A stretch of DNA of 5,353 nt. It comes from Escherichia coli. Its GTDB lineage: Bacteria > Pseudomonadota > Gammaproteobacteria > Enterobacterales > Enterobacteriaceae. How positions within the stretch are numbered: position 1 is the stretch's first letter; every line of letters begins with the position of its first letter. Below are positions 78 to 335 of the stretch, in pieces. The translations under genes were made by a program, and so were the position numbers. The stretch lies in assembly GCF_003334815.1 (NCBI RefSeq), contig NZ_QOWO01000073.1; one strand, given 5' to 3'. The notes under the pieces were generated by a model. That model did no database searches and was not told where the DNA came from. It worked only from the letters and a program-made list of their open reading frames with translations.

Positions 78-94
78 CCGCTGTGTGGAGTCGC

Positions 95-122
95 ATTATA
101 GGGAGAGTTCAAAATGAGTCAA
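95..122 (-). promoter_or_regulatory. Sigma70 promoter for the tRNA-Val operon (-35 TTGACT at 117..122, 16-bp spacer, -10 TATAAT at 95..100, read on the minus strand)
   Basis: Minus strand reads GCGTTGACT-CATTTTGAACTCTCCC-TATAAT-GCGACTCC, about 17 nt upstream of the mature tRNA 5' end. Near-consensus hexamers; the segment further upstream on that strand (123..200) is A/T-rich. No experimental data. Confidence 0.55.
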
Positions 123-242
123 CGCATTTTCTAAAGAAATTGTTCGTTCGTCGTAAATTTAAGCAAGATGATCGCAAAACAGACCGTGTTGCGCAATTTG
201 TCAACGAAAACAATAATGCGTAAGGTAGAAACCCGAACTACA

Positions 243-270
243 TTGAGGAATCAGGCGGGAGTGATAGAAT
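243..270 (+). promoter_or_regulatory. Candidate gltX promoter with extended -10 (TTGAGG at 243..248, 16-bp spacer, TG-n-TAGAAT at 262..270)
   Basis: Sequence motif only: TTGAGG, 16 nt, then gTGaTAGAAT, about 65 nt upstream of the gltX ATG. A weak Shine-Dalgarno (TAAGG, 324..328) precedes the ATG at 336. gltX is reported to have several promoters (recalled); I cannot assign which. Confidence 0.35.
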
Positions 271-335
271 ATCGCCCACTTAATTTTTCCAGGATTTGCC
301 GGTTGTCGGCATCTTTCTAAACGTAAGGCCATTTC

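Follow-up and report, generated by a model that had tools for sequence, protein, structure and literature searches.

The valU-gltX locus

The stretch of DNA analyzed here (the window) comprises 5,353 nucleotides of Escherichia coli (assembly GCF_003334815.1, contig NZ_QOWO01000073.1). The subject is its positions 78-335, which are exactly the intergenic region between valU, the first gene of a tRNA operon, and gltX, which encodes glutamyl-tRNA synthetase. An earlier note, made from the sequence alone, had described this segment as a compact divergent control region, and that call proved accurate. The two genes that diverge from it are:

2-77, minus strand: tRNA-Val(UAC), first gene of the valU operon (ARAGORN; Rfam tRNA, 65.9 bits; RefSeq annotation of the identical K-12 locus)
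336-1751, plus strand: gltX coding sequence, 471 aa (open reading frame [ORF] list; K-12 RefSeq annotation)

Window positions 1-400 match E. coli K-12 at every base (100% identity), and a megablast comparison with 5,426 complete E. coli genomes located the window in all of them, with 100% identity in K-12 derivatives. The RefSeq annotation of the K-12 locus includes tRNA-Lys/tRNA-Val (the valU operon), gltX, yfeD, yfeC, two copies of tRNA-Ala and pdeA. The published K-12 region is thus the same DNA as the one considered here and the intergenic region shows no difference at all; downstream, K-12 carries alaX and alaW in place of the one tRNA-Ala(GGC) of the window.

The region is therefore the already characterized divergent gltX-valU promoter region of E. 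coli. Judging by its title, an entire study has been devoted to it (Brun, Sanfacon, Breton and Lapointe, 1990, J Mol Biol 214:845), and a later paper announces in its title that FIS influences transcription from the two promoters (Champagne and Lapointe, 1998, Mol Microbiol 27:1141). Taken together, the two titles refer to closely spaced, non-overlapping divergent promoters of gltX and the valU tRNA operon, and include alaW. The titles alone indicate that both the sequence object and the proposed connection with Fis had already been described. Experimental dissection of the region dates from 1990 and 1998; the present analysis contributes no new biology but only independent computational support, namely that the gltX start corresponds to an extended -10 promoter, that rrnB P1 and the valU promoter are co-linear, and that Enterobacterales as a whole retain the arrangement and its elements. 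The region is a textbook-style case of one growth-phase-responsive upstream region serving both a tRNA operon and the gene of an aminoacyl-tRNA synthetase.

Several further details belong to the reported picture of this locus. The gltX gene is said to possess three promoters (P1-P3), its transcripts are reportedly processed by RNase E, an AT-rich bent upstream region is said to be common to both promoters, and a leader structure reportedly lies near the ribosome-binding site. FIS is also said to stimulate valU transcription and to lower that of gltX; if this is right, the "coupling" of the two genes is not a simple co-activation.

Promoter elements of the divergent region

Conservation was assessed by a pattern scan with a degenerate gltX start, one genome per species, which yielded 120 loci, all from Enterobacterales or close relatives. 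In 98 of the 120 loci, the first gene encountered upstream is a tRNA-Val(UAC) in divergent orientation, and the intergenic length is mostly 245-330 bp, with a range of 184-536 bp. The 95 distinct intergenic regions were aligned using MAFFT, and the conservation of each block was expressed as the mean identity to the window base; all counts out of 95 given below refer to this set. Transcription start sites (TSS) were taken from the supplementary table of Kim et al. (2012, PLoS Genet, PMC3415461), which employs NC_000913.2 coordinates and lists the length of the 5' untranslated region (UTR). The elements of the region are:

122-117, minus strand: valU -35 hexamer TTGACT, followed by a 16-bp spacer (consensus scan; identical in 91/95 regions)
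100-95, minus strand: valU -10 hexamer TATAAT, ATTATA on the plus strand (consensus scan; identical in 94/95 regions)
94-87, minus strand: GC-rich discriminator GCGACTCC (read from the sequence; aligns with GCGCCACC of rrnB P1)
78-86, minus strand: predicted 9-nt valU leader with the predicted +1 at A86 (from the rrnB P1 register; 93% conserved)
127-144, minus strand: UP-like A/T tract, about -41 to -58 from A86 (UP consensus match; aligned with the UP region of rrnB P1)
150-164, no strand assigned: putative Fis-like site I, GTCGTAAATTTAAGC, centre 157, i.e., -71 from A86 (from position and conservation)
191-205, no strand assigned: candidate Fis-like site II, GCGCAATTTGTCAAC, centre 198, i.e., -112 from the predicted valU +1 and -80 from the gltX start at 278
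243-248, plus strand: gltX -35 hexamer TTGAGG (consensus scan; identical in 89/95 regions)
262-270, plus strand: gltX extended -10 element TGaTAGAAT, with TG at 262-263, A at 264 and TAGAAT at 265-270 (consensus scan; TG(A/G/C)TAGAAT in 84/95 regions)
253, plus strand: second, weaker gltX 5' end (Kim et al., 2012, PMC3415461: 2518777, 19 reads, 83-nt UTR)
278, plus strand: main gltX start, A278 (Kim et al., 2012, PMC3415461: 2518752, 33 reads, 58-nt UTR)

On the minus strand, the near-consensus tRNA-Val promoter proposed in the earlier note, TTGACT-16-TATAAT, is present as described: it matches 11 of the 12 consensus positions, is nearly invariant in Enterobacterales and is co-linear with rrnB P1. 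The window contains two promoter matches of at least 11/12, whereas 300 dinucleotide shuffles averaged 0.06 and none reached two; both matches are located directly upstream of the two tRNA genes of the window. The block TGGAGTCG-C, which covers the valU discriminator, is identical in 85 of the 95 intergenic regions. Position A86 lies 8 nt after TATAAT and falls in the same alignment register as the +1 A of rrnB P1, from which we infer that valU transcription starts there.

The promoter rrnB P1 is the archetypal Fis- and UP-activated, stringently controlled stable-RNA promoter. The rrnB P1 sequence used for comparison is 100% identical to the E. coli DNA between murI and a 16S rRNA gene. When the region upstream of valU is read on the minus strand, the aligned rows of the two promoters require no gaps relative to each other. 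Both have a 16-bp spacer that ends in CTCCC, the -10 hexamer TATAAT, an 8-nt GC-rich discriminator (GCGACTCC versus GCGCCACC) that is followed by A, an A/T-rich tract from -40 to -60, and a 15-mer of the form G-N13-C centred at -71. The GC-rich discriminator is the feature that renders such promoters sensitive to guanosine tetraphosphate (ppGpp)/DksA and to the initiating nucleoside triphosphate, and -71 is the established position of Fis site I in rrnB P1. The two promoters differ in the -35 hexamer, which is TTGACT in valU and TTGTCA in rrnB P1. Furthermore, the product of valU, unlike that of rrnB P1, is a tRNA operon transcript with a predicted 9-nt leader, and valU shares its upstream region with a protein-coding gene transcribed divergently. 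The number and positions of further Fis sites differ as well, with the valU candidate at -112 as opposed to -102 and -143, the values reported for rrnB.

The A/T-rich stretch that the earlier note had drawn at 123-240, as the place where activation through Fis and UP-type elements would be expected, is real in part. It contains 62% A+T, against 47% in the gltX coding sequence, and is richest in segment 123-165 (67%), which is also the only part conserved across the order. The UP consensus AAAWWTWTTTTNNNAAA, with at most two mismatches, has only two matches in the window (0.64 expected), both at 127-144 on the minus strand, i.e., upstream of the valU -35 hexamer and nowhere else; the enclosing block 123-145 has a conservation of 0.72. 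Beyond this tract, G150, C164 and the A/T core of the putative Fis-like site I are conserved across the order, and the valU 15-mer GCTTAAATTTACGAC (window 164-150) and its rrnB counterpart GGTTGAATGTTGCGC, both G-N13-C with an A/T core, occupy identical alignment columns. The pentamer GTTCG at 146-150, which abuts this site and overlaps its first base, is invariant in 84 of the 95 regions. The candidate site II shows at most one mismatch to the Fis consensus GNNYRWWWWWYRNNC in 32 of 40 Enterobacteriaceae-type intergenic regions, with two mismatches in E. coli itself; a block at 191-211, GC(A/G)YRATTTNTAAACAAAA, is conserved within Enterobacteriaceae. The UP matches confined to the valU side, the conserved 15-mer near -71 and the paper titles are all consistent with the expected type of activation, whereas the Fis consensus scan, detailed below, does not discriminate. 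Because this consensus is not discriminating and site I departs from it at two positions, the assignment of the sites follows from position and conservation, and we consider the exact positions predicted here somewhat more probable than improbable.

On the plus strand, the extended -10 promoter suggested for gltX coincides with a mapped start. TTGAGG-16-TAGAAT matches 9 of the 12 consensus positions and carries the TG extension. As a pattern, a 9/12 match is unremarkable, given that the scan reports 10 promoter-like sites in the window versus 5.4 expected; the promoter is validated by the mapped TSS at 278 together with the 94-96% conservation of its elements. The printed 51-nt upstream sequence of this start corresponds to window 228-278, and A278 lies 7 nt past the end of TAGAAT at position 270 (Kim et al., 2012, PMC3415461). 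The printed upstream sequence of the 253 end corresponds to window 203-253; this end may be a weak start or the processed end of a longer transcript.

The core elements of the two promoters do not overlap: the valU -35 hexamer ends at 122 and the gltX -35 hexamer begins at 243, with the gltX start mapped and the valU start predicted. Mean identities in the alignment are 0.93 for the valU leader plus discriminator, 0.99 for the valU -10, 0.99 for the valU -35, 0.72 for block 123-145, 0.82 for block 146-165, 0.37 for block 166-240, 0.96 for the gltX -35, 0.94 for the gltX extended -10 and 0.96 for the gltX Shine-Dalgarno sequence; the spacers between the hexamers are variable, unlike the hexamers themselves. 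Judged by the alignment, this footprint is the one expected of two real promoters, that of valU having a conserved element upstream. We consider it highly probable that 78-335 harbors two non-overlapping, back-to-back sigma-70 promoters.

The orthologous intergenic region has been recovered in another context. In Salmonella Typhimurium, the gltX-valU intergenic region is among the FabR-bound regions obtained by chromatin immunoprecipitation on microarrays (PMC4804515). The list of these regions also includes several other tRNA and ribosomal-protein loci and may reflect the high immunoprecipitation signal of heavily transcribed DNA.

Proposed mechanism and alternative explanations

We propose that the valU promoter belongs to the rrn P1 class of stable-RNA promoters and that it would be assisted by an UP element and by Fis and would be sensitive to the stringent response. 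Transcription would begin at A86, and the resulting 9-nt leader would be removed by RNase P. The UP-like tract (-41 to -58) may contact the C-terminal domain of the RNA polymerase alpha subunit, and a Fis-type site would be located at about -71 (150-164), probably with a second one at about -112 (191-205). The gltX promoter, in turn, is a moderately strong extended -10 promoter that starts at A278 and yields a 58-nt, hairpin-containing leader. During fast growth, Fis and the UP element would raise valU transcription and, by way of the common upstream region, gltX could be influenced by the same protein-DNA complex as well as by the supercoiling that divergent transcription generates. Within this scheme, the influence of FIS is taken from the paper titles, whereas responsiveness to growth rate and to the stringent response follows from general knowledge of such promoters.

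Several results weigh against this scheme. Scanning the window with the Fis consensus GNNYRWWWWWYRNNC gave 13 sites with at most one mismatch, against 13.3 in shuffled sequences, and 85 sites with at most two mismatches, against 90, i.e., no enrichment at either threshold; site I in E. coli deviates from this consensus, which is itself non-discriminating here, at two positions. The invariance of GTTCG at 146-150 is not explained by the degenerate preference of Fis. A valU start was sought in the Cappable-seq supplements and, by coordinate, in those of Kim et al. (2012) and none was found, the table of the latter being devoid of tRNA starts. Finally, the consensus scan detects no convincing promoter match upstream of the gltX 5' end at 253, a position within the main promoter's spacer.

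One alternative is that the two promoters are merely neighbors, such that valU is served only by 123-165, comprising the UP element and a single upstream site, gltX relies independently on its own conserved -35 and extended -10, 166-240 is a neutral spacer and there is no functional coupling between the synthetase and the tRNA. The poor conservation of 166-240 (0.37) and the variable length of the intergenic region (184-536 bp) are compatible with this possibility, as is the fact that no UP-like tract is present upstream of the gltX -35; furthermore, with the core elements 120 bp apart, the promoters cannot occlude each other. Nevertheless, the divergent pairing is kept in 98 of 120 loci over a whole bacterial order, the Fis-like block 191-211 between the promoters is conserved within Enterobacteriaceae, and the title of Champagne and Lapointe (1998) speaks of an influence of FIS on both promoters, so that we regard mere adjacency as unlikely. 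A different question is whether block 146-165 (GTTCG...TAAAWTTA...CA) is bound by Fis at all, or is instead the target of another factor or an additional weak plus-strand promoter element of gltX, with the -10-like TAAATT/TAAAAT at 154-159. The pentamer GTTCG, invariant in 84 of 95 regions, is not required by the degenerate Fis preference, the left half-site departs from the Fis consensus, and the three reported gltX promoters stand against only two 5' ends found, at 253 and 278. These considerations are offset by the position of the block, which lines up exactly with rrnB P1 Fis site I and with the conserved alaW upstream 15-mer, by the consensus scan, which reports no suitably spaced -35 for 154-159, and by the table of Kim et al. 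(2012, PMC3415461), in which no TSS appears at 165-175. On balance, a role of the block other than Fis binding appears improbable.

The gltX start itself might be questioned if the 5' end at 278 were a product of processing (e.g., by RNase E) of a longer transcript and the match to TGaTAGAAT were coincidental. The reported processing of gltX transcripts by RNase E and the existence of the second 5' end at 253 point in this direction. However, 278 is located exactly 7 nt after a TG-extended -10 that has a -35 hexamer 16 bp upstream, and the combination of 94-96% conserved hexamers with a variable spacer and variable flanks is the signature of a promoter rather than of a cleavage site, which makes the processing scenario very improbable.

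The gltX leader, the yfeC/alaW region and flanking features

The leader of gltX contains two features upstream of the ATG at 336:

297-311, plus strand: hairpin TGCCG/CGGCA in the gltX 5' UTR, 13 nt before the Shine-Dalgarno sequence
324-329, plus strand: gltX Shine-Dalgarno sequence TAAGGC (0.96 conserved), 7 nt before the ATG

Of 88 leaders, 83% have a hairpin in roughly this position, at a median distance of 24 nt from the ATG, compared with 26% of shuffled controls, and the stems vary by genus (for example TGTCGGT/GCCGACA, ACCAGC/GCTGGT, CGGGAGC/GCTCCCG). Within Enterobacteriaceae, covariation is almost absent. A covariance model, which reached only Enterobacteriaceae-type sequences (42 matches), showed a stem that is 95% paired in these 42 leaders but a single compensatory change, no better than shuffles. 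RNAalifold predicted no structure in 43 gltX leaders aligned with MAFFT, in which the hairpin arms of different genera are out of register. The predicted fold of RNA 278-350 (-10.6 kcal/mol) is not better than those of shuffled sequences (z = -0.24), and no Rfam family matched in the intergenic region or the gltX leader. Two specific roles were considered and rejected. The scan marked the hairpin as terminator-like, but its function as an attenuator is contradicted by the lack of the T-rich tail in other genera; mimicry of tRNA-Glu in the leader, an idea said to date from 1990, has no phylogenetic support, with the CUUUC motif that follows the hairpin not being conserved. The hairpin could act in transcript stability or as a translational operator. 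There is, in addition, a slim chance that GTTCG and the leader hairpin mark an uncharacterized regulatory input beyond the UP, Fis and promoter elements; examples would be a second DNA-binding factor common to both promoters, or a feedback operator on gltX, translational or acting on stability, that responds to glutamyl-tRNA synthetase (GluRS) or tRNA-Glu.

Downstream of gltX, the window contains the following features:

1803-2195 and 2197-2556, minus strand: two small ORFs (ORF list)
2601-2613, minus strand: yfeC TSS at 2601 with the -10 TAAAGT at 2613-2608 (Kim et al., 2012, PMC3415461: 2516429, 23 reads, 60-nt UTR)
2673-2687, no strand assigned: Fis-like 15-mer GCCTGATTTTTCAGC upstream of alaW, about -72 from the predicted start G2752 (one mismatch to the consensus; conserved in 62 sequences)
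2716-2744, plus strand: alaW promoter TTGACA-17-TATGAT (consensus scan, 11/12; -35 identical in 61/62 sequences)
2777-2852, plus strand: tRNA-Ala(GGC), single copy in the window (ARAGORN; Rfam)

According to the earlier note, the layout of the valU-gltX region recurs at 2557-2776, which is exactly the intergenic region between yfeC and the tRNA-Ala gene alaW. This holds with respect to the near-consensus tRNA promoter and the divergent yfeC start at 2601, but there is no canonical extended -10 and the pairing is not conserved. The alaW upstream region (2662-2761) shares with valU and rrnB P1 the pattern TTG-N12-CG in the same register, a GC-rich discriminator preceding the predicted +1 at G2752, and the Fis-like 15-mer, which falls in the same alignment register as those of valU and rrnB P1. 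It differs in its 17-bp spacer, in the -10 hexamer TATGAT and in its weak divergent partner. The yfeC promoter, whose start lies 151 bp from the predicted alaW start, has a TG that is displaced by one position (-14/-13), lacks a recognizable -35 and is not reported by the consensus scan, and segment 2557-2650 is poorly conserved. Across genera, the distance between the gltX ATG and tRNA-Ala is 1535-3200 bp; many genera thus have no room for yfeC and yfeD, so that alaW directly follows gltX with no divergent partner. In Escherichia and its near kin, then, the two regions resemble each other in geometry, but the likeness does not amount to a conserved design.

The start codon of yfeC varies by annotation, with 119 aa in RefSeq and in the ORF list versus 114 aa in NC_000913.2 and Kim et al. 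(2012); depending on this choice (window 2197-2556 versus 2541), the TSS at 2601 yields a leader of 45 nt or 60 nt. Between the convergent gltX and yfeD genes, a perfect hairpin with an 11-bp stem and T-runs on both strands (1769-1797) looks like a bidirectional intrinsic terminator.

Instead of the single tRNA-Ala(GGC) at 2777-2852, K-12 carries the tandem pair alaX-alaW with a 115-bp repeat unit (compare 4399-4589 of the K-12 derivative L001). Among the 5,426 complete E. coli genomes, 133 have the single-copy form, O157:H7 EDL933 being one of them. In Enterobacterales at large, the tandem arrays range from 1 to 3 copies for tRNA-Val and from 1 to 4 for tRNA-Ala; L001 has only two tRNA-Val copies. 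For pdeA (yfeA), two weak starts supported by 7 and 3 reads (Kim et al., 2012, PMC3415461) map to approximately 2928 and 3026 when the missing 115-bp alaX unit is allowed for, and the longest ORF (2944-5250, GTG start, 768 aa) exceeds the annotated gene (3061-5250, ATG at 3061).

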